In this document: positions 7,341 through 64,000 of the stretch, in pieces
Layout of the letters: each line of letters starts with the position of its first letter
Numbering within the stretch: the first letter of the stretch is position 1
DNA from: an uncultured Acidimicrobiales bacterium
Lineage (GTDB): Bacteria; Actinomycetota; Acidimicrobiia; Acidimicrobiales; JAHEJN01
Assembly (NCBI GenBank): GCA_963787285.1
Contig: CAWBCM010000013.1
Span: 137,265-201,264 of the forward strand
Direction of reading: 5' to 3'
Length of the DNA stretch: 64,000 bases
Position numbers and translations under genes: made by a program
The notes under the pieces: model-generated
Seen by the model: only the letters and a program-made list of their open reading frames with translations
What the model was told of the DNA's origin: nothing
Database searches by the model: none

Positions 7341-8912
7341 TCAGCTCCTCCCGGCCGCAGCCGCCGACCGCGCCGACTTCGCGTCGTGGGCGGGGTAGGA
7401 GCGCCAGACGATCGCCGCTGCGATGAGGCCGAACACCGTGGCCACCGTGAAGGCGAGGGTCATGCCTTCGGTGAAGGCGTCGCCGGCGCTCTGGACGAGC
7501 GCCAGGGCCTCGGGCCCATCGAGGCCGCCCGCCACCTGAAAGGCCCCACCCACCGAGTCACGAGCCGCTTCGGCCAGCGGTTCGGGCAGTCCGTCGGCCG
7601 ACGAGCCGAGGGCCGACCGGTAGCCACTGGCCATGAGGGTGCCGAGTACGGCGATGCCCAGGGCGCCGCCCACCTCGCGGGTGGTGTCGTTCACTGCCGA
7701 GCCGACGCCGGCCTTGCTCTGGGGCAACGAGCCGAGGATCGCGCCGGTTGCGGCCGGCATGAGCAGGGCCATACCGCCCGCGATCAACACGATGCCGACG
7801 GCCGTGAACAGATAGGGAGTATCGGACTCGAGTTGGCTCAGGACGAAGAACCCGATCGCCTGCACCACCAATCCGAGGGTGATGGCGCCTCGGTTTCCGA
7901 TCCTGCCGGCGACGTTCGGCGAGCGGGGCGCGATGACGACCATGGTGGCCGCAAACGGCAGGTTCCGGAGACCGGCACCGAGAGGGCTGTGACCCTGGGT
8001 GAACTGGAAGTACTGAGTGATCAGGAAGAACATGCCGAACATCACCGCGAACGATGCGCTGATCGTGAAGCTGCCCAGGGCGAACGGGCGCACCCGGAAC
8101 AGGCGCGGGTCGAGCATGGGGAACGTCGTCGTGCGCTCGAACACCACCCAGCCGACGAGGAACACCGCCGCGGCGACGAACCAGCCGATGGTGCTTCCCG
8201 TCGCCCATCCGTTCTCACCGCCCGCGATGATGGCGTACACCAGCGCGCCGAGGCCCGCGATCGACAACAGTGAGCCCACGAGATCGAGAGGCCGTTCCTC
8301 GTCGTCACGAGAGGTGGGTACCAGCGTCGAGATCAGGCCGAAGGCGATGAGCGCGATCGGGACATTGATGAAGAAGATCGAACCCCACCAGAACTTCTCG
8401 AGCAGAGCACCGCCGCCGATGATGCCGATGGCACCGCCGGCCCCCGCGAAGCCCGACCACACCGCAATGGCCTTGACCCGTTCGTGCGGTGGGAAGACCT
8501 CGGTGAGAATCGACAGGGTGGCGGGCATGACGAGCGCCGCTCCGATACCCATGCTGCCCCGCGCGGTGATGAGGGTGATCGGCGAGTCGCTGTAGGACGC
8601 CCAGAATGCGCCCGCGGTGAAGATGGCGAGTCCGGTCAACAGTGCGCCCTTGCGACCGTAGCGATCGCCGATTGCACCCGCAGGCAGCAACAACCCGGCG
8701 AACACGAGGGCATACGAGTCCACGATCCAGAGCTGTTCGGTCTGGCTCGGCTCGAGGGCGGTGATGATGGAGGGAATGGCGATGTTCAGCGAGCTGACAC
8801 CGGCCACCACCAGGATGAGGCAGCCGCACATGATGCCGAGGATCTGCCACTTGCGCGGATGGCCCGCCGGAAGCTCGTCGAAGTCGGTGCCGGGTTCGGG
8901 CCGAGACTGCAT
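7341..8912 (-). CDS. MFS transporter, DHA2 (EmrB/QacA-like, 14-TMS) drug/H+ antiporter family
   Basis: The internal start MQSRPEPG... (ATG at 8912-8910) shares one nucleotide with the amidase stop (TGATG). It has many TM helices and the signature GAIGDRYGRK. The ORF-track extension up to 9719 is antisense shadow of the amidase gene. Confidence 0.85.
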   Translation of the reverse strand: MQSRPEPGTDFDELPAGHPRKWQILGIMCGCLILVVAGVSSLNIAIPSIITALEPSQTEQLWIVDSYALVFAGLLLPAGAIGDRYGRKGALLTGLAIFTAGAFWASYSDSPITLITARGSMGIGAALVMPATLSILTEVFPPHERVKAIAVWSGFAGAGGAIGIIGGGALLEKFWWGSIFFINVPIALIAFGLISTLVPTSRDDEERPLDLVGSLLSIAGLGALVYAIIAGGENGWATGSTIGWFVAAAVFLVGWVVFERTTTFPMLDPRLFRVRPFALGSFTISASFAVMFGMFFLITQYFQFTQGHSPLGAGLRNLPFAATMVVIAPRSPNVAGRIGNRGAITLGLVVQAIGFFVLSQLESDTPYLFTAVGIVLIAGGMALLMPAATGAILGSLPQSKAGVGSAVNDTTREVGGALGIAVLGTLMASGYRSALGSSADGLPEPLAEAARDSVGGAFQVAGGLDGPEALALVQSAGDAFTEGMTLAFTVATVFGLIAAAIVWRSYPAHDAKSARSAAAAGRS

Positions 8913-10327
8913 CAGCCGAAGATAGTGGGCACGCGATCGGCCCACGGCGCCGCCGTCTCGATCTGGGCCGCGAGGCGGATGAGCAGCGCCTCGTCGTCGA
9001 TCGGTCCCACGAATTGCACTCCGACCGGAAGGCCGTCGTCGGTCGCGTGCAGGGGCAGGGAGATGCCGGGTTGACCGGTCACGTTGAACTGTGGCGTGAA
9101 CTGCAGGATGCTCGTGAGCCGCTCGGTGCCGAGCTCGGGATCGCGGAGCCAGCCGATCGGCGGTGGTGGCACGGCGATCACCGGGGTCACCAGCACGTCG
9201 TAGTCGTCCCACCAGGCATGCATGCGACGCGACCATGAATGCAGCCAGCTCACCGAGTTGATGTAGGTCGACGCCGGGATGGTCTTTCCCACCGCCGCCA
9301 TGAACCAGTTGTCGGCTTCGACGTCGGCCTCGGTCAGCTCGCGCCCCAAGGTGACGGCGTGCTTCTCGAAGTCCGCCGCCATCGACGCGGCCACCGCGGT
9401 GATGAAGTGGTGGGGGAACTCGGGGTCGGCCATGGGCGGCGGATGCGCGACCTCCACGCCGTGGCCGAGGCTCTCCAGAAGACTGCCGGCCCGCTGCACC
9501 GCGTCGACGCAATCGACGTGGGTGTCGACCGACTCGTGGGTCGGGGCGATGCCGACCCGCAGTGGCCCGGGATCGACTCCCACCTCGGCGGCAAAGGGTC
9601 GCAGTGGCGGCGGAGCAGCGTAGGGGTCGCCGGTACGGCGGCCCTGCATCACGTCGAGGATCGCGGCCGTGTCGCGAACGGTGCGCGAAACCGCACCGTC
9701 GGTGGATGCACCGGCCCACGACTCACCGGCGCCGGGTCCGAGGGAAACACGTCCTCGGCTCGGCTTGAGCCCGACGATGCCGCATTCGCTGGCCGGGACC
9801 CGTATCGATCCGCCGCCGTCACTCGCATGGGCCATGGGCACCATCCCTGCCGCGACTGCCGCGGCGGACCCTCCCGAGCTTCCGCCGGCGGACCGATCGG
9901 TGTCCCACGGATTGCGGGTCGCCCCGAACGCGGTCGGCTCGGTGGTGACCGTGCTCCCGAACTCGGGCGTGTTGGTGCGACCCAGCGTGACGAGGCCGGC
10001 ACCTCGGATCGACTCGTACATGAACGAGTCGTGGTCGGCCCTGACGTCGGCATCCTTCATGGCCTGGCAGCCGAGCTGCAGCGGCTCGCCCGCCACGGCG
10101 CAGCGGAGGTCCTTCACGAGGAACGGAACGCCGCGAAACGGGCCATTGGGCAGCTCACCGACGGCTTCGGCCCGTGCCGCCTCGAACCGCTCGTGGATCA
10201 CTGCGTTCACCGCGGGGTTGGTGCGTTCGATTCGTGCGATGGCCTCGTCGACGAGCTCCAACGGGGAGGCCTCGCCTCTGGCGACGAGAGCGGCGAGCGC
10301 GGTGGCATCGAGATGGGGACTGGGCAT
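8912..10327 (-). CDS. Amidase (amidase-signature family)
   Basis: Start at [11 protein letters not shown] (ATG at 10327). The amidase signature [14 protein letters not shown]...[12 protein letters not shown] is present. Confidence 0.85.
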
Positions 10328-10401
10328 TGGCGAACCGTACCGGCCGGGGCCGGCCCGGTCGAAGTGAGTGCCCGAGCGACCTTCTGTAGGATCGGCGCCA
10401 T

Positions 10402-11504
10402 ATGACACGCGTGATCGAAGGCGTCGAGGTGGCCGAGCTCTACACCTCCGCCGACCGGCCTGCGCCATTGGCCGGAGCCGACAGCGGACGCTCGGCTCGG
10501 CGTTGGCAGATCCGTCAGCGTCACGCCGGTGCCGATCCGGGGTCGGTCAACGCCTCGGTTCTCGACGACCTGATCGGCGGCGTCGAGGCCATCGAGCTGC
10601 ACGGTCTCGACGCCGGCGACATCAAGGCGGCATTGGCCGGGGTCGAGCTCGACATCGCCCCCATCTCGCTGTCGCCCGACGCCGACGGATCCGGCGCCTG
10701 GGCGTTGATGGGTCTGTGGGCCGACGAGGTCGCCGACGACGCCTGCGCCGGCGCCTTCGGCATCGATCCGCTGGGTGCCGGAGCCGCGCTCGATCCTGTC
10801 GCGGCGGCGGCGCTGGTCGCGGCGGCCACAGTGAGCGTCGAACGGTTCCCGCAGGTCCGCTCGGTCGGCGTCGACGCCTCGAGATACCTCGAAGCGGGCC
10901 ACGCGCTCGAGCTGGGCTTCTCGCTCGCCACCGCCGTCGAGTACCTGCGGGCCCTCGACGAGGGTGGTCTCGGCATCGACGACGCGGTCGGGGAATTCGA
11001 GTTCACCTACGGCGTCACCGCCGATCAGTTCGTCTCCATCGCGAAACTCCGCGCCGCCCGTGGGTTGTGGCACCGAGTGGTCGGCGTGTGCGGCGGCGAT
11101 CCCGGCCGAGCCCGCCAACGTCAGCGAGCGGTCACCGCGCCGCCTCGTGGCGAGGACCCGTGGAGTGACGTGCTGCGGGCGACGACAGCATGTTTCGCCG
11201 CGGGTGTCGGCGGCGCCGACGCGGTGACGGTGCTCCCCTTCGATCACGCAGCGTCGGGCGACTACTCCGCCGGCTTCGCTCGGCGCATGGCCCGCAACAC
11301 CCATCACCTCCTGCTCGACGAAGCCCACGTTGCCGAGGTCGGCAACCCTGCGGCCGGCGCGCCCTTCGTCGAGTCGCTCACCGACGCGTTCGCCCGTCGG
11401 GGCTGGGCCGTGTTGCAGGCCGTCGAGGCGGCAGGAGGCATGGGCGCGGCCCTCGAGTCGGGGTTCGTCGACGACCAGCTGGCCTCGGCGACCGAGGCGG
11501 CATC

Positions 11505-11508
<4 letters not shown>
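10402..11508 (+). CDS. mutA: Methylmalonyl-CoA mutase small (beta) subunit-like protein, short form
   Basis: 368 aa. It shows mutase-fold similarity ([26 protein letters not shown]). Its stop overlaps the GTG start of mutB (GTGA at 11505-11508). No C-terminal B12-binding domain is evident. Confidence 0.7.
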
Positions 11509-13631
<2,123 letters not shown>

Positions 13632-13632
13632 G

Positions 13633-14616
13633 ATGGTCGACATCACCGACCTGTCCGAGGCGGTGCGGTCCGGCGATCGCACCGCAATCGGTCGGGCCAT
13701 CACCCTTGTCGAGTCCGAGCACCGCGAGCATCGGTCCGATGCCGACGCCCTGCTCGTCGCACTCATGCCCTTCAGTGGCAACGCCACGCGTGTCGGGATC
13801 ACCGGACTTCCCGGCGCCGGCAAGAGCACCTTCATCGACGCCCTCGGCACCCAGCTCACCAGCGCCGGAAAGCGGGTGGCGGTGTTGGCGGTCGACCCGT
13901 CGAGCTCGATCCACGGAGGCTCGATCCTCGGCGACAAGACGCGGATGGCGCGACTGTCCAACGATCCGTCGGCCTTCATCCGGCCGTCGCCGTCGTCGGG
14001 AGCCCTCGGCGGGGTCACCCGCCACACGAGAGAGACCATGGTGGTGCTGGAAGCGGCCGGCTACGACGTGGTGCTGGTGGAGACCGTCGGTGTGGGTCAG
14101 TCCGAGACCACGGTGCGCGACATGGTCGACACCTTCGTGGTGTTGGCCATCGGCGGCGCCGGCGACGAGCTCCAGGGCATCAAGAAGGGAGTGCTCGAGC
14201 TGGCCGACATCGTGGTGGTGAACAAGACCGACGGCGACCGCGTCACTGCGGCCGAAACCGCAGCCCGCGACATCACCACCGCCCTCCACCTCGTGACCCC
14301 GCCCACCGCCGCCTGGCAACCGCCGGTTCTCACCGCCAGTGCCCTCCACGAGGAAGGGCTCGACCTCGTGTGGGGCCAGATCGGCCGGCACCGTGACATG
14401 CTGGTGGAGACCGGCCAGCTCGAGGAGCGCCGCCGCCGCCAGCTCGTGCGGTGGATGTGGTCGATGGCCGACCAGGACGTGCTCGAACGGTTCCGCTCAG
14501 ATGCCGGTGTTCGCCGGGTGGGCGCCGAGGTCGAGGCCGCCGTCCTGGCGGGTGAGCTGAGTGCCCCCGAAGCGGCCGAAAGGATCCTGCGGGCCTTCGG
14601 GACGACCGACCGCTGA
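13633..14616 (+). CDS. meaB: Methylmalonyl-CoA mutase-associated G-protein chaperone
   Basis: The ATG at 13633 lies 2 nt after the mutB stop. P-loop GLPGAGKST, ETVGVGQSE, and NKTD (read in the sequence as VVNKTDGD) are present. Confidence 0.9.
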   Translation: MVDITDLSEAVRSGDRTAIGRAITLVESEHREHRSDADALLVALMPFSGNATRVGITGLPGAGKSTFIDALGTQLTSAGKRVAVLAVDPSSSIHGGSILGDKTRMARLSNDPSAFIRPSPSSGALGGVTRHTRETMVVLEAAGYDVVLVETVGVGQSETTVRDMVDTFVVLAIGGAGDELQGIKKGVLELADIVVVNKTDGDRVTAAETAARDITTALHLVTPPTAAWQPPVLTASALHEEGLDLVWGQIGRHRDMLVETGQLEERRRRQLVRWMWSMADQDVLERFRSDAGVRRVGAEVEAAVLAGELSAPEAAERILRAFGTTDR

Positions 14617-57182: not shown

Positions 57183-57523
57183 GCGCTGTCGATATTGCGC
57201 GCCGCGAGCCGACGGGAGCGACCTTGCCGGCGTGTCCGCCGCGTTCGAAGAGCGTGTGCGCAGCTGCGCGGCCCCACCTTGGTCGAAATCGCTCGGCTTC
57301 GTGACCTTGAGCACTCAGTTTGGGCTAGCTATAGTCAGAGGAAATGGCTGGCGGCGATTCGGAACACCGTCTCAGGCGTCTTGCCGGACACGCTGGGGCA
57401 TCCGAAAGGGCAGTTCGTGAGTCGGATGAGGTGATCTCGACGAGTCAAGTACGCCGAGCGACGATCGCGGTGTCCTCCTCATCGCCGGCTTCGGTATCGG
57501 CAGGCAGAGGGTGAGAGGGAGAC

Positions 57524-57826
57524 ATGCTGGAACGACTGACGCAGCGGACACTGGTGCTGACCGCCGCGGTGTTCTGCATCGCAGGCATCGTCGAGGGCAT
57601 CCGGATCGACCGCCCGAGTGTCGCCGTGCTCTTCGCTCTCGTGCTCGGCGTGGGCAGCGTCATCGCCCGTGACAAGGCCACGCAGCGACCGATCCGGGTC
57701 CGACCGGATCTGCGTGAGTGGCTCGACGACACCGCGTCGGTCACCGGCGACTCGATCGAGGAGCTGAGCAACGCGGCGCTGAGCAGCTACCGGGCCGAGC
57801 TCTCCGGGTCCCGCGATGCCCGCTGA
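57524..57826 (+). CDS. Small protein: two N-terminal TM helices + C-terminal ribbon-helix-helix-like tail
   Basis: GAGGGAG lies 6 nt upstream of the ATG. TM helices are [14 protein letters not shown] and [15 protein letters not shown]. The tail [27 protein letters not shown] looks RHH-like. It overlaps the next gene by 11 nt. Confidence 0.45.
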
Positions 57827-60400
57827 CCCGAATCTGGTCGCCCGTGTCGACGGCAGCGGGCTCGCAAACGAGCGCGCGGGCGGGAAGGGTTCGTCCCTCG
57901 ACGTCCTCGTGTCCCTGGGCGCCAGGGTTCCCGAGACGAGCATCGTCACGACGGCGGCCTACCGGCTGTTCGCATCGGAGCCTTCGATCGCCGCGTTGCT
58001 CGAAGAGCTCCGGACGGGCGAGCTGCCGCTGCCGCAGGATCACGAACGCGAGCAACAGCGCGTCGACGACGCGTTCCTCTCCGTGGAGTTGCCGGAACCG
58101 ATCGTCGAGGCGATCGCTGCGTTCGGACCGCCGATCGGTGGCGAAGCGACGGTCGCCGTCCGTTCCTCGGCGACTGCGGAGGACATGGCATCGGCGTCGT
58201 TCGCCGGCCAGTACCGCTCCCTGCTGGACGTGGGTCCCGACGACCTGAGTAGGGCGGTCCGGCTGGTCTGGGCGTCGCTATGGCACCCTGCGCCGAGGAG
58301 CTACCGGCGATTCCGGAACGTCCCAGAGGACGATCTCTCCATGGCCGTCGTCCTGATGACGATGCTCGACCCGTCGCATGCGGGGGTGATCTTCACCAGC
58401 GATCCAGGTGGTTCACCGGATCATCTGCGGATCGAGATCGTCGAGGGCCTCGGCGAAGCGCTCGTGTCGGGCGAAGCCACACCCGAGGCCTTCGTGGTCC
58501 CCCACGACGAGAGCGTCGAGCGGCTCGCGGAGGTCAGACCAGTCTTCGGTGAGGTGGTGGCCGAGGCGCTGCGCATCGAGCGCGAGCTCGGCTCGCCGCA
58601 AGACATCGAGTGGGCCGTCGACCACGACGAGCTCTACCTGGTCCAGGCTCGCCCGATCACGACCGAGTCGATCGAAGTCGGAACCGACGACGGGTTCGAC
58701 GTCAACGTCGAACCAATGGCGAGCTTCACGACCGCGGGCATAGGGGAGTCCCTGCCCGGCGTGGTGCCGCCGCTCGACTGGACGGTGAACTCCTGGACCC
58801 TCGAGAACGGGTTCCGGGGGCTCTTCCACCGTCTCGGTGGGTGCCCGGACGGGCTCGCCGGGCCCCATGCCCTCATCGGTCGCTTCCGGGGACGCGCCGC
58901 GCTCAACCTCGACCGGATGCTGCAGGCCGCAAGCACCATCCCCGGAGCGTCGCCGGAGGAGCTCGAGCACCAGTACTTCGGTGAGGCCGTGCGGTCCGAG
59001 GACGCACCGCCCGCTCCGACCCCACCGAAGGCCGGTGCTGCCCAGGGCTTGCGCACGCTGCGCGCTCGGCAGACGGCGGCCCAGGAGTCCGAGGTCGTCA
59101 CGCTCGCCGTGGACCGACTCCTCGACATCGAACCCGAGCTCCGCCTCCTCGAAGATGACGGCCTGCTCGCCTACCGGTCGCGCCTGCTGCATCTCGCCAC
59201 CCGGGTGGTGACCGCAGAGGTCGCGATCGCGGCCATGGCCACGGCCAGCTACCGCAGCATCGAGGTGTTCCTCAGCAAGCAGCTCGGTGACGCCGAGGCC
59301 AGCCGAGCGGCGCAGCTCATGACCTCGGGGACCGGTGGGACGCGCCGGGCATTGATCGCACTGGCATTGAGTGACCTCGTGGAGGAGTCACAGGCGAGCC
59401 CGGAGCTCCGCGAGGCCACGAGCAACGACGTCTGGTCCGAGGCCCAGTTAGCGCTCGTCCGCTTCCCGAGCGGTCGTGGCTTCATCGAGCACTTCGGCGA
59501 GGCACTTCGTCGCGCCGGGTCGACGTCCTACTTCGGCGGTCCGACCTGGGCCGAGGTGCCCGACCTCGCGTGGCTCACGTTCCGTCACGAGGTCATCGCG
59601 CCCCCCCACGACGACGACGCCGAGCGACGTGCCGCACGCGACGAGATCGAAGACCGACTCACACGGAGCTCGGACTGGTCCTACACCCGATGGAACAGCG
59701 GTCAGCTCTTCGACATCCGTCGGCGGTTCTTCCGCCGCGAGTCCGCCGACGCGGCCGAGTTCCTCGATCGGCGCGAGCGCACGAAGGCCGCGATGTTGAA
59801 GCTCGGCGGAGCCCTCCGCCGGCTCAACCTCGAGTTCGGAGCACGGCTGGTGGAGTCCGGTCGGCTCGACGACCCCGAGGACGTCCGCTTCCTCTCGAAC
59901 GCCGAGCTCGTGGCGCAGATGGCTGGTGGCGGCCCGACCACCGACGTCGTGGCGATCCGCCGGCGACGCCTCGACGAGGCCGAGCTCGATGGTCCGCTCC
60001 CCCGGGTGTTCGAAGGGACGCCGGACGCTGCCGAAGCGGCGAAGATCGAGGGCGTCCGGGTCGAGGGGTGGGGCGCCAGCCCGGGACGTTACGAGGGCCC
60101 GGCCCGGGTCGTCCGTTCGGTCAGCGCCAGCTCTCTCCGCCGAGGCGATGTCCTGGTCGCCCGCTCGACCGATGCGTCCTGGGCGCCGTTGTTCCTGCTC
60201 GCCGGCGCCATCGTGGTGGAGGACGGCGGCCCGCTCTCACACGCTGCGATCGTCGCCCGTGAGCTCGGCATGCCGGCCGTGCTCAACGTTCCCGGCATCA
60301 TGGACCGGATCGAGTCGGAGCCCGAGGAGGTGGCGCTCCGCGTCGACGGGACCAGAGGTGAGGTGATCATTCACGAGCCGGCGGTCGCCGGGGAGATCGA
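57816..60400 (+). CDS. PEP/pyruvate-binding + PEP-utilizing swivel-domain enzyme with rifampicin-phosphotransferase-like architecture; native 3' end lost at a sequence junction
   Basis: N-terminal PPDK_N/ATP-grasp (GGKGSSL..., [23 protein letters not shown]). A long helical middle region follows. The C-terminal mobile His domain is [46 protein letters not shown]. There is no stop codon before the aldolase-like sequence begins, so the end coordinate is approximate. Confidence 0.75.
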
Positions 60401-61124
60401 CCTCCGCGATCCGGTGCCGTTGCGGGACCAGGCGCGCAAGGTGGTCGACATGGCGCACAAGCTCGGCGTCACGGTCGAGGGCGAACTCGGCTGCCTGGGT
60501 TCGCTGGAAACCATGCGCGGCGACAAGGAAGACGGCCATGGCACCGAGTCGACGATGACACGCGAGCAATTGCTGACCGACCCCGAGCAGGCGGCGGACT
60601 TCGTCAAGAAGACCCAGCTCGACGCGTTGGCGATCGCCATCGGCACCAGCCACGGCGCCTACAAGTTCACCCGCAAGCCCACCGGCGACATCCTGGCCAT
60701 CGACCGCATCAAGGACATCCACAAGCGCATCCCGAACACGCACCTGGTGATGCACGGCAGCTCGAGCGTGCCGCAGGACCTGCTGGCCGTGATCCGCGAG
60801 TTCGGCGGCGACATGAAGGAGACCTACGGCGTGCCGGTCGAAGAGATCCAGGAGGCCATCAAGCACGGCGTGCGCAAGATCAACATCGACACCGATGTGC
60901 GCCTGGCCATGACCGCGGCGATCCGCAAGTACCTGTTCGAGAACCCGAGCAAGTTCGATCCGCGCGACTACCTCAAGCCCGCGCGCGAGGCCGCGAAGGG
61001 CATCTGCAAGCAGCGCTACCAGCAGTTCGGCTGCGAAGGCCAGGCCGCCAAGATCAAGCCCCAGACCTTGTCGGCGGTGGCGCAGCGCTACGCCAGCGGG
61101 GCCCTGGCGCAGACCGTCGTCTGA
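60401..61124 (+). pseudogene. fba: C-terminal ~two-thirds of a class II fructose-bisphosphate aldolase, fused in frame to the upstream ORF
   Basis: [23 protein letters not shown]...[13 protein letters not shown]...[11 protein letters not shown]...VRKINIDTD is unmistakably class II FBA (CbbA/FbaA type). The N-terminal ~150 residues, including the first metal ligands, are absent. Confidence 0.85.
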
Positions 61125-62061
61125 TGGCGGCATCGCCGCAGTCGTCGCTGCGCTCGCAGCCGCAGCTGCAGAGCAGCTTGCGGTCGCTTCCATTGGTCGC
61201 GCGGGGCAAGGTGCGCGACAACTACGCCGTCGGTGAGGATCGCCTGCTGATGGTCGCCAGCGACCGCCTGAGCGCGTTCGACGTCGTGATGGGCGAGCCG
61301 ATCCCGGGCAAGGGCGAATTGCTCACGCGCATGGCGCTGTTCTGGTTCGAACGCCTGGCCCATGTCGTGCCGAATCACCTCACCGGCGACGACCCCGAAA
61401 GCGTCGTCACGGCGGACGAGCGCGCGCAGGTGCGCGGCCGCTCGATGCTGGTCAAGCGCCTCAAGCCCCTGCCGGTCGAGGCCGTGGTGCGCGGCTACCT
61501 GGCCGGCAGCGGCTGGAAGGAGTACCAGGTCAGCGGCGAGGTCTGCGGCGTCAAGCTGCCGCCGGGCCTGCGCAACGCGGGCAAGCTGCCGGCAGCCGAT
61601 CTTCACGCCGGCGACCAAGGCCGAGATGGGCGAGCATGACGAGAACATCCCATTCGAACGCATGGCGCAGATCGTCGGCGCAGACGTTGCGCGCGCAGGT
61701 GCGCGAGGTCTCGATCCGCCTGTACGACGAAGCGGCTGCGTTCGCGCTCACCAAGGGCATCATCATCGCCGACACCAAGTTCGAGTTCGGCCTCGATGCC
61801 GACGGCACGCTGACCCTGATGGACGAGGTGCTGACGCCCGACTCGTCGCGCTACTGGCCGCTCGAGGGCTACGCGCAGGCCCTGGCCGAGGGCCGCAATC
61901 CGCCGAGCTACGACAAGCAGTTCGTGCGCGACTGGCTCGAGAGTGCGCGCGTCGACGGCGCGCCGTGGAACAAGCGCGCGCCGGCGCCCTCGTTGCCGGC
62001 CGATGTCGTGGCCCACACCGCGGCCAAGTATCGCGAAGCGCTGACGCGGCTCACTGGTTGA
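61124..62061 (+). pseudogene. purC: Phosphoribosylaminoimidazole-succinocarboxamide synthase (long type), two frameshifts
   Basis: [32 protein letters not shown]..., then [23 protein letters not shown] in a second frame, then [31 protein letters not shown] in a third. The switches lie at about 61591 and 61680. Confidence 0.85.
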
Positions 62062-62062
62062 C

Positions 62063-63202
62063 ATGACGGCGTCGCGCTCGCGCTTGTTGCAGCGGCTCGA
62101 CGCCGCGATCGCTGCGGCGGCCAACCCCGTCGAAGCCCTGTGCCTGCGCGCCGAACGCGCTGCGTTGTTGGCGCGCCAGGGCCAGCTCGAAGCCGCCAAG
62201 ACCGTGATCGACGAGTTGAATACGCAGCTGGCCTGGCAGCCCAACACCACCTTGCGCGCCTGGGTGGCGCTGGCCGAGGGCTTGCACGACCACTACAGCG
62301 CGCTGGGGCGCGCAGCGCCGACGAGCATCGAGCAAGCGCACGCGCTGGCCCAGGGGGCCGGGACATTGCCGCGCCTGCAGGCACTGGCCGCGGCGTGGCT
62401 CGCCAACATGGCCTTTGCCGATGACGACATGCCGCGCATGGCGGCCTTGGTGCGCGAGTCGTTGGACCTGGCCGGGCCGGAGCACCACGGCGCACGTGCG
62501 CGCGCGGCGCTGGTGGCCGGCTATGCCTATCACTTCGCGGCCGAGGGCGCGCGCGCCCAACCGTGGTACGAGGCCTCGCGGCGCCATGCCATCGCCGACG
62601 GGGACGAGACGCACCTGTCTGCGTTGATGCACAACCAGGCCTGGATGCGTGCCAGCCAGGCGAGGCTGGCGCTGTTGTTCGGCGACGCGGGCGGGGACGC
62701 TGTGCATGTCGAGGCCGTGGGCCACGCCTTGATGGGGGCCGAGTCGATCGGCCATTACGACGCCGGCGTCGGCACCGCGTCGCTGGGGTCGCTGGTGCCC
62801 ATGCTGCGGGCCCAGGTACTCACCGCGCAGGCCAAATGGCGCGAGGCCCTGGACCTGTTCGAACTCCATTTCGAGGCCGCACTGGCCGAGGGCCTGACGC
62901 GGCTGGCGCCCGGCCTGCTGGCCGACCGTGCCTGGTGCGAGTGGCATCTCGGCAACGCGCGCAAGGCGCAGGCGCTGGTGGGCGCGGCCGAACAGGCCCT
63001 GGCACAAGCCTGCGACACCGACGACCGCGCGATGGCCACGGCGCGCCTGGCGCAGGTGTGTACCGCGTTGGGCGACCTGGCCGCCGCGGCCCGCCACCGC
63101 GACACTGCGCAGTCGCAATACGCGGCGCATTGTGCGCAGCAGCGGCAAATCGCCGCGCTGCTGGATCAGTCACTGGCCGGGATCGACCCGACCACGGTCT
63201 AG
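62063..63202 (+). CDS. Hypothetical Ala/Leu-rich helical-repeat (TPR-like) protein
   Basis: 379-aa ORF starting 2 nt after the purC stop. Repetitive amphipathic helices. I recognise no family. Confidence 0.5.
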
Positions 63203-63206
63203 TCGC

Positions 63207-64000
63207 TCAGAACAGCGCCATGCTCAGCTTGCGCCGGTACTGGTCGACGACCGGGTCCGTGACGGTCGAAGGCGCGGACTTGCCGGTCAACTCCAGCGCA
63301 CCCTTGGCCGGCTCGTTGGCCGAGGGCTTGGGCGCGGGCTTGCTCATCAGGGTCAGGATCGCCACGTAGGTCTTGCGCGCGGCCTCCTGGTTCCAGGTCT
63401 TGTCGCGCATCACGATCTCGAGCAGTTCGTCCATCGCCTGCGTGAAGCGGCCAGCGGCGAAGTGGCCTTGCGCCAGCTCGAAGCGGGCCTCGAAGTCGCG
63501 CTTGTTGGTGCCGATCGCGGCGGTCAGCGTGTCCACGCTGCGCGCCGATCCCGCCGCCTGCTGCGCGGCCAGCCAGCGACCCAGCGCGTCGATGCGCCCA
63601 TCGACGATCGCCTTGCTCGCCACCGGGGCCAAGGCCTGTTCGGCCTGCGCCACCTGGCCCTGGGCCAGCAGCAGCTTGACGTAGTCGTAGCGCGCCGCCT
63701 CGTTGGCCGGGTCGATGGCGACCGCCTGCTGCAGCTTGGCCAGCGCCGACTCGGCATCGCCTTCGGCGATCAGCGCCTCGGCGTCGTCGACCTCGGCTTC
63801 GGCTTCGAGTTCGACCGTGCTCGGCACATGCTTGTCCAGGAAGGTGCGAATCTGCGCCTCGGGCAGCGCGCCGACGAAGCCATCCACGGGTTGGCCGCCG
63901 ACGAACATGACGCAGAACGGGATCGAGCGCACACCGAAGGCCTGGCTCAGCTGGGCGGCGATCTCGGGCTGGTCGTCGCTGTTGAGCTTGGTCAGCTTGA
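63207..64000 (-). CDS. Thioredoxin-domain + TPR co-chaperone (YbbN/CnoX-like); 5' end outside the window
   Basis: The frame is open to the window edge (KLTKLNSDDQPEIAAQLSQAFGVRSIPFCVMF is the thioredoxin-fold end). It is followed by TPR-like helices and a C-terminal tail. Confidence 0.75.
   Translation of the reverse strand, partial: KLTKLNSDDQPEIAAQLSQAFGVRSIPFCVMFVGGQPVDGFVGALPEAQIRTFLDKHVPSTVELEAEAEVDDAEALIAEGDAESALAKLQQAVAIDPANEAARYDYVKLLLAQGQVAQAEQALAPVASKAIVDGRIDALGRWLAAQQAAGSARSVDTLTAAIGTNKRDFEARFELAQGHFAAGRFTQAMDELLEIVMRDKTWNQEAARKTYVAILTLMSKPAPKPSANEPAKGALELTGKSAPSTVTDPVVDQYRRKLSMALF

Follow-up and report, generated by a model that had tools for sequence, protein, structure and literature searches.

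A very probable inter-phylum chimeric join between an Acidimicrobiales dikinase-PAP2 gene and a Burkholderiales aldolase gene in a public metagenome-assembled contig

Introduction

Chimeric contigs that join DNA from two phyla have been documented for long-read metagenome assemblers (bioRxiv 10.1101/2025.04.22.649783). Here, we describe a stretch of 64,000 nucleotides (nt) from contig CAWBCM010000013.1 of an uncultured Acidimicrobiales bacterium (assembly GCA_963787285.1), which we call the window, and in it an open reading frame (ORF) of 1102 residues that leads from an RPH-like dikinase gene directly into the middle of fba, the gene for class II fructose-bisphosphate aldolase. The window resembles the published inter-genome chimeras in carrying two phyla on one contig, with a sudden shift in taxonomy, composition and codon usage, cut genes and an indel-prone consensus. 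Whereas those chimeras were defined by read clipping and coverage, the case presented here was recognised from assembled sequence. Very probably, the junction is not a gene fusion but an inter-phylum chimeric join that came about when a sediment metagenome was sequenced or assembled, and it would have no biological function.

Two gene families meet at this junction. On the left is the RPH family of phosphoenolpyruvate (PEP)-utilising dikinases, whose stand-alone RPH members consist of three parts, an ATP-grasp (PPDK_N) domain, a central substrate-binding region and a swivelling His domain, within about 860-880 residues. The left 872 residues of the fused ORF contain the PPDK_N and PEP-utilizers domains in RPH-like order and length, and some relatives bear the automatic names 'rifampicin phosphotransferase' or 'pyruvate, water dikinase'. 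Unlike stand-alone RPH, the native orthologues are fusions of about 1255 residues with a PAP2 domain, so the 872-residue form represents a truncated protein rather than a stand-alone RPH. On the right is the Burkholderiales FbaA locus, which lies in a pyk-fba-purC neighbourhood. The window agrees with it in residues 126-354 of the aldolase and in the one-base overlap of fba and purC seen in native contigs, but differs in that foreign sequence stands in place of the upstream gene and of aldolase residues 1-125.

Results

Two truncated genes in one open reading frame

The ORF at 57816..61124 on the plus strand has no stop codon across the junction, as the original prediction had stated and as the ORF list confirms. 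Pfam assigns PPDK_N to residues 19-232, the swivel domain (PEP-utilizers) to residues 775-848, and F_bP_aldolase to residues 872-1076, the last match covering only positions 115-277 of the 277-position profile. The ORF is divided as follows.

57816..60432, plus strand: Acidimicrobiales dikinase-PAP2 gene (RPH-like, PEP/pyruvate-binding), present with its 5' part only, residues 1-872 of about 1255, and broken off in the linker that leads to PAP2 (Pfam, homologues and short-read contig X3)
60432..60433: breakpoint, blunt and very probably chimeric, with neither overlap nor filler (end of the X3 match, start of the L028 match and 20 loci)
60433..61124, plus strand: 3' part (residues 126-354) of the Burkholderiales class II fructose-bisphosphate aldolase gene, fba (Pfam, aldolase P0121 and contigs L001 and L028)

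The closest homologues of residues 1-872 share 80-87% identity with the window, are 1254-1263 residues long and end in a C-terminal PAP2 domain (PF01569). Their source MAGs are named Actinomycetota, Actinomycetia, Acidimicrobiia or Acidimicrobiales, in agreement with the actinobacterial character predicted for the left side. In the alignment, the similarity to the window ends at the junction, beyond which these homologues share a conserved linker (...LGAGVAPLR...) that leads into a multi-pass PAP2 domain. The same linker was found in a 236-nt short-read contig from a sediment run (X3), which matches the window without a mismatch from 60242 to 60432 and then continues with 45 unlike bases, starting ACCCCGGCCTCGGCGCGGGAGTGGCGCCGC. 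Translated in frame, this tail reads DPGLGAGVAP, the conserved linker of the family, which indicates that the natural allele of the organism continues into PAP2 and that the gene in the window is truncated by about 385 residues. The description of the left part as a complete RPH-like enzyme is correct as far as the domains are concerned; compared with its relatives of about 1255 residues, the gene itself is, on these alignments, truncated.

The dikinase-PAP2 architecture was observed beyond this locus. A family of about 1255-residue fusions of an RPH-like dikinase (PPDK_N and swivelling His domain) with a C-terminal membrane PAP2 phosphatase domain is widespread in Acidimicrobiia and Actinomycetota (window 57816-60432; 10001-13768 in the Actinomycetota relative L002; proteins P0001-P0012).

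To the right of the junction, residues 873-1102 match the 354-residue aldolase P0121 at 98% identity; 229 of its residues are present and the 125 N-terminal ones are gone. The aldolase had been predicted to be N-terminally truncated by about 150 residues; the truncation holds, with only the 3' part of the gene present, and its extent is corrected to 125. The fragment, restricted to profile positions 115-277, falls short of a full TIM barrel (about 354 residues, profile 1-277). The best aldolase matches that carry names belong to Burkholderiaceae, Methylibium, Rubrivivax, Rhizobacter and Caldimonas. The native upstream part of the gene is also available: both L001, which contains an intact 354-residue fba, and L028, a native Burkholderiales contig, extend leftwards as ...SYDYNVDVT/RKVVD (the slash marks the breakpoint). 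In L028, the nucleotide sequence at this position is ...AGCTACGACTACAACGTCGACGTCA/CGCGCAAGG, encoding SYDYNVDVT/RK, and the aldolase is unbroken across the breakpoint. A contig from another run (X38) likewise has aldolase sequence upstream of 60438. We also considered L028 as a second chimera with the same right breakpoint, and rejected it, as what precedes the match is the N-terminal part of native fba, broken only by indel errors of L028's own.

The position of the breakpoint

From these matches, the breakpoint is placed between 60432 and 60433, within the predicted interval of 60370-60440. The exact match of X3 stops at 60432, the match of L028 begins exactly at 60433 and runs to 64000 with 98.4% identity, and the relatives never align further left. 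All 20 of the relatives' loci that reach the breakpoint (L001, 18 Burkholderiales genome loci and L028) start to align at 60433-60441, and many of them carry kilobases of upstream sequence, yet the alignment halts there. Approached from the other side, left-type nucleotide similarity stops at about 60419, and the switch in taxonomy and synteny falls within 60419-60435. When both native sequences are aligned side by side, the junction is blunt, with 0 shared bases and 0 filler bases. A mis-join through k-mer overlap, as in de Bruijn assembly, was rejected, because the two native sequences do not overlap at the junction. The common reading frame of the aldolase fragment and the dikinase would be a matter of chance (1 in 3), and the 1102-residue ORF a spurious product of it.

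The open frame is what speaks for a natural bifunctional dikinase-aldolase fusion protein. This explanation is effectively refuted by the state of both halves: the aldolase part lacks about one-third of the TIM barrel with its first 125 residues, the dikinase part is without the PAP2 domain of the native protein, and the two differ in codon usage, with a GC content at third codon positions (GC3) of 0.86 against 0.95. Full-length fusions of this kind in other genomes would have argued for a natural protein. No aldolase domain was found at the dikinase C terminus among the best 120 of 6702 significant homologues, which carry PAP2 or nothing in its place, and no homologous fusion is present in the 90% cluster of the fused protein.

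Composition and codon usage

The comparison of taxonomy and composition on both sides, which had been proposed as a check, agrees with a chimeric join, as do the native flanks. Taxonomically, the left side is Actinomycetota/Acidimicrobiia and the right side Burkholderiales. Measured against the left 60 kb, the right 3568 nt are an outlier in tetranucleotide usage (z=6.4), more distant than any of 114 equal-sized pieces of the left side. The tetranucleotide profile of the right side correlates with those of Burkholderiales loci at r 0.96-0.98 and with the left side of the window at 0.82, and the left profile correlates at r 0.96 with that of the Actinomycetota relative. Synonymous codon usage also differs between left and right (chi-square p ~4e-33, against 0.09 for a left-versus-left control). 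For example, CGC accounts for 82% of the Arg codons on the right and 34% on the left, and CTC for 14% of the Leu codons on the right and 42% on the left. The GC content of the two sides is close (0.67 vs 0.70), so that a simple GC plot barely reveals the join.

The join in the deposited contig

The fused 1102-residue product, both purC fragments, a 379-residue protein from the right side and a 1039-residue protein from the left side are all recorded in NCBI/ENA on one contig of 225,407 nt. This record bears on a join made after assembly, either by concatenation or scaffolding without Ns in the depositor's pipeline, or by construction of the 64-kb window from two contigs. Such an origin would account for a perfectly blunt junction with no shared sequence and with both terminal genes cut, as where contig ends meet. 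The fused product was recorded together with left and right proteins, however, which means that the join was not made by construction of the window and arose before gene calling; exact protein look-ups returned no record of the split products of 872 and 229 residues, and concatenation by a depositor is not standard practice. We regard a post-assembly join as very unlikely, and the concatenation of two sequences, originally offered as one of the alternatives, is thus narrowed to a join already in the deposit.

The same 225,407-nt contig also encodes proteins that are identical to, or 90%-cluster members of, the products of downstream genes in L028 and L029, namely purK, Sua5, two GDSL-lipase-like proteins, peptidase S13 (a fragment), TsaD (a fragment), an acetyltransferase, UDG, EamA and a BrkB-like protein. 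The BrkB-like gene lies about 20 kb past the junction, and by these protein records the foreign Burkholderiales block is at least about 21 kb long. For the genes upstream in L028, none of the cluster-mates listed lies on the 225,407-nt contig. A product corresponding to the missing PAP2 remainder was recorded neither on the contig nor elsewhere in the deposit, a weak test in which indel fragmentation and search length limits could hide a match.

As a side observation, the fused protein (cluster of P0241) is found in protein sets derived from NCBI/ENA. Its 90% cluster consists of itself and two short aldolase fragments, with a 203-residue aldolase fragment as the representative.

The genes on either side of the junction

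The remaining features of the region are listed below.

57524..57826, plus strand: small 100-residue ORF in native Acidimicrobiales context, overlapping the start of the dikinase-like gene (ORF list)
61124..62061, plus strand: Burkholderiales purC (SAICAR synthetase) with two 1-nt insertions (Pfam SAICAR_synt split over two ORFs; three-frame reading)
62063..63202, plus strand: 379-residue helical protein conserved in Burkholderiales, with a weak TPR_MalT match only (L004, L005 and 22 loci)
63207..64000, minus strand: 3' part, within the window, of a YbbN-like thioredoxin-TPR gene of the Burkholderiales block (Pfam TPR_19 and TPR_20)
60428-60445 and 62246-62263: arms of an 18-nt perfect inverted repeat (repeat pair I6), the first across the breakpoint (CCAGG/CGCGCAAGGTGGT) and the second inside the gene for the 379-residue protein

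The left flank follows the gene order of the Actinomycetota relative L002, in which a 100-residue ORF in the same overlapping position (9709-10011) is followed by the dikinase gene, PhoD and two more PAP2 genes. The nucleotide similarity between the window and L002 starts at 57517.

The genes downstream of the junction had been predicted to be of Burkholderiales type, comprising purC overlapping the fba stop, a helical protein and a YbbN-like protein, and the aldolase matches and all 22 related loci bear this out. One base belongs both to the fba stop and to the purC start (TGATG). Relatives of the lineage-specific 379-residue protein were found in 22 genome loci, all of them Burkholderiales of the Aquincola/Ideonella group and all collinear with the window to its last position. 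The exact product of the gene is also encoded on two independent Logan contigs from short reads, L004 and L005. The YbbN-like gene is complete in L028, where its 315-residue product carries a Thioredoxin domain. The Burkholderiales source can be assigned to the Aquincola/Ideonella/Methylibium group. L004, assembled from short reads of another run, matches the window at 2077 of 2081 bases between 61911 and 63991 (99.8%, gapless). Identity at this level to short-read contigs of other runs indicates that the right block has undergone no amelioration.

Consensus errors on both sides

The coding sequence of purC runs through three reading frames because of two 1-nt insertions, at 61593 (GGCAGCC vs GG-AGCC) and at 61695 (GCGCGCGCAGG vs GCGCGC-CAGG, in a GCGCGCGC run). 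Both are missing from nine relatives and from L028, and are probably consensus errors. We considered these frameshifts as a mark of specially low coverage in the right block, and rejected this interpretation because the left side has indel frameshifts too: on the minus strand, a DrrA-like ABC ATPase gene shifts frame in a run of CCCC/GGGG at about 51120 (...WEVIQELVDTG/RTVLLTTQYMEEADLL...), which shows that indel errors also hit the Acidimicrobiales part. Single-base indels that break genes on both sides, together with an L028 contig full of 1-nt indels, point to a low-coverage, long-read-only assembly with a low-accuracy consensus.

Errors of the same kind were seen in related assemblies. L028 (ENA ERZ25039603 contig_11798, a Flye-style name from another ENA assembly), an independent long-read contig of the native Burkholderiales strain, differs from the window by five 1-nt indels between its own positions 7993 and 9060, of which one lies in purC and the others in fba. 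In its gene calls, fba is a 245-residue fragment and purC a 144-residue fragment, as in a public consensus of low accuracy. L020, from a related long-read MAG (MFD02134.bin.2.177), has an extra base of its own in purC at about 9530 (GCCGCAGATGG), where eight other relatives and the window are one base shorter, which suggests similar indel errors in sister assemblies. Several of the related loci come from 'MFD' MAGs, and membership of the present contig in the Microflora Danica project could not be confirmed. The long-read MAGs of that project were built from Nanopore reads only, with one round of Medaka polishing, and metaFlye is cited (PMC12313526).

Searches for a mobile element or independent copies of the junction

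The border is flanked by a glyoxalase-like gene, a small ORF and core metabolic genes. No integrase, transposase or other mobility gene was found at the border, no tRNA between 50000 and 64000, and no direct repeat flanking the border in the repeat search. Samples of one sediment study (P1) contain the two organisms at low depth, and pieces of both are present in one of its runs (X21). A contig crossing the junction was found in none of 16 public runs, a weak absence given that these are shallow short-read Logan contigs. An exact scan of JGI metagenome contigs found no copy of the junction 40-mer; the native left allele is absent there as well, which makes the scan uninformative, as the organism is not in that collection.

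The 18-nt inverted repeat listed above has one arm across the breakpoint. Of its bases, 13 belong to a native repeat within the Burkholderiales sequence and the 5 extra ones match on the Acidimicrobiales side, for which the chance is roughly 0.2%. Over the distal arm, the window and L028 align without a difference. The repeat may be a coincidence or a trace of template switching or chimera formation.

Discussion

We first weigh the case for a real and very recent transfer between phyla, in which at least 21 kb of Burkholderiales core chromosome was integrated by illegitimate recombination (blunt or with microhomology) and interrupted the dikinase-PAP2 gene. In that case, the fused ORF would be a real locus, though probably a non-functional one, and the contig would have caught an inter-phylum transfer of core genes almost as it happened. 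Several observations could be read in this way: the join sits in a deposited long-read contig, implying some read or graph support, the two organisms share the samples of one study down to a single run with pieces of both, and the inverted repeat across the breakpoint could hint at a microhomology-type event. The nature of the cargo argues strongly to the contrary. Its housekeeping core genes keep their native synteny and an unaltered Burkholderiales composition and share 98.4-99.8% identity with free-living strains from samples of the same kind, and it is accompanied by no integrase, transposase, tRNA or target-site duplication. Furthermore, the same study contains the native allele in unjoined form, the rest of the disrupted gene on its 3' side did not turn up (by the weak test described above), and the junction was seen neither in the Logan contigs nor in the JGI scan. 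Taken with these points, a real transfer is highly improbable.

The chimeric join accounts for the whole set of observations: two genes cut at one base, a simultaneous switch in taxonomy, synteny, composition and codon usage, native alleles for both flanks, a large un-ameliorated block of housekeeping genes and an error-prone assembly. In the 225,407-nt contig, Acidimicrobiales sequence ends at 60432 in the middle of the dikinase-PAP2 gene, and Burkholderiales core chromosome begins at 60433 in the middle of fba. Since the deposit itself contains the join, this very probably arose in sequencing or assembly. A blunt join with neither repeat nor filler would most likely result from a chimeric long read or from a mis-join by the assembler at low coverage, and the binner would then have retained the contig in the Acidimicrobiales MAG since most of it is Acidimicrobiales.

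Some points weigh against a chimeric join. An assembler normally needs read or graph support, and a blunt, repeat-free join is not the classic repeat-mediated mis-join. The evidence consists of assembled contigs and protein records, not raw long reads, and the contig beyond the window was read indirectly only, through protein-cluster records. In addition, the native left allele is represented by a single 236-nt Logan contig with a depth of about 4, whose 45-nt tail is backed by protein homology. Even with these points taken into account, we hold with high confidence that the junction is an artefact of sequencing or assembly.

As the fusion protein very probably does not exist, the locus would carry no biological weight, and its significance lies in data quality and database hygiene only. 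At least 21 kb of a public 225-kb MAG contig belongs to another phylum, and the fake 1102-residue protein has already entered collections derived from NCBI and ENA, where it clusters with aldolase fragments. Marker-based contamination scores miss foreign sequence joined inside a contig, according to one report (bioRxiv 10.64898/2026.10.15.759294). For curation, the contig should be flagged for splitting at 60432/60433, with the right-hand features assigned to Burkholderiales. Any inference of gene transfer, of metabolism (fba, purC/E/K) or of domain fusion drawn for this Acidimicrobiales bacterium from the contig beyond 60432 would be wrong.

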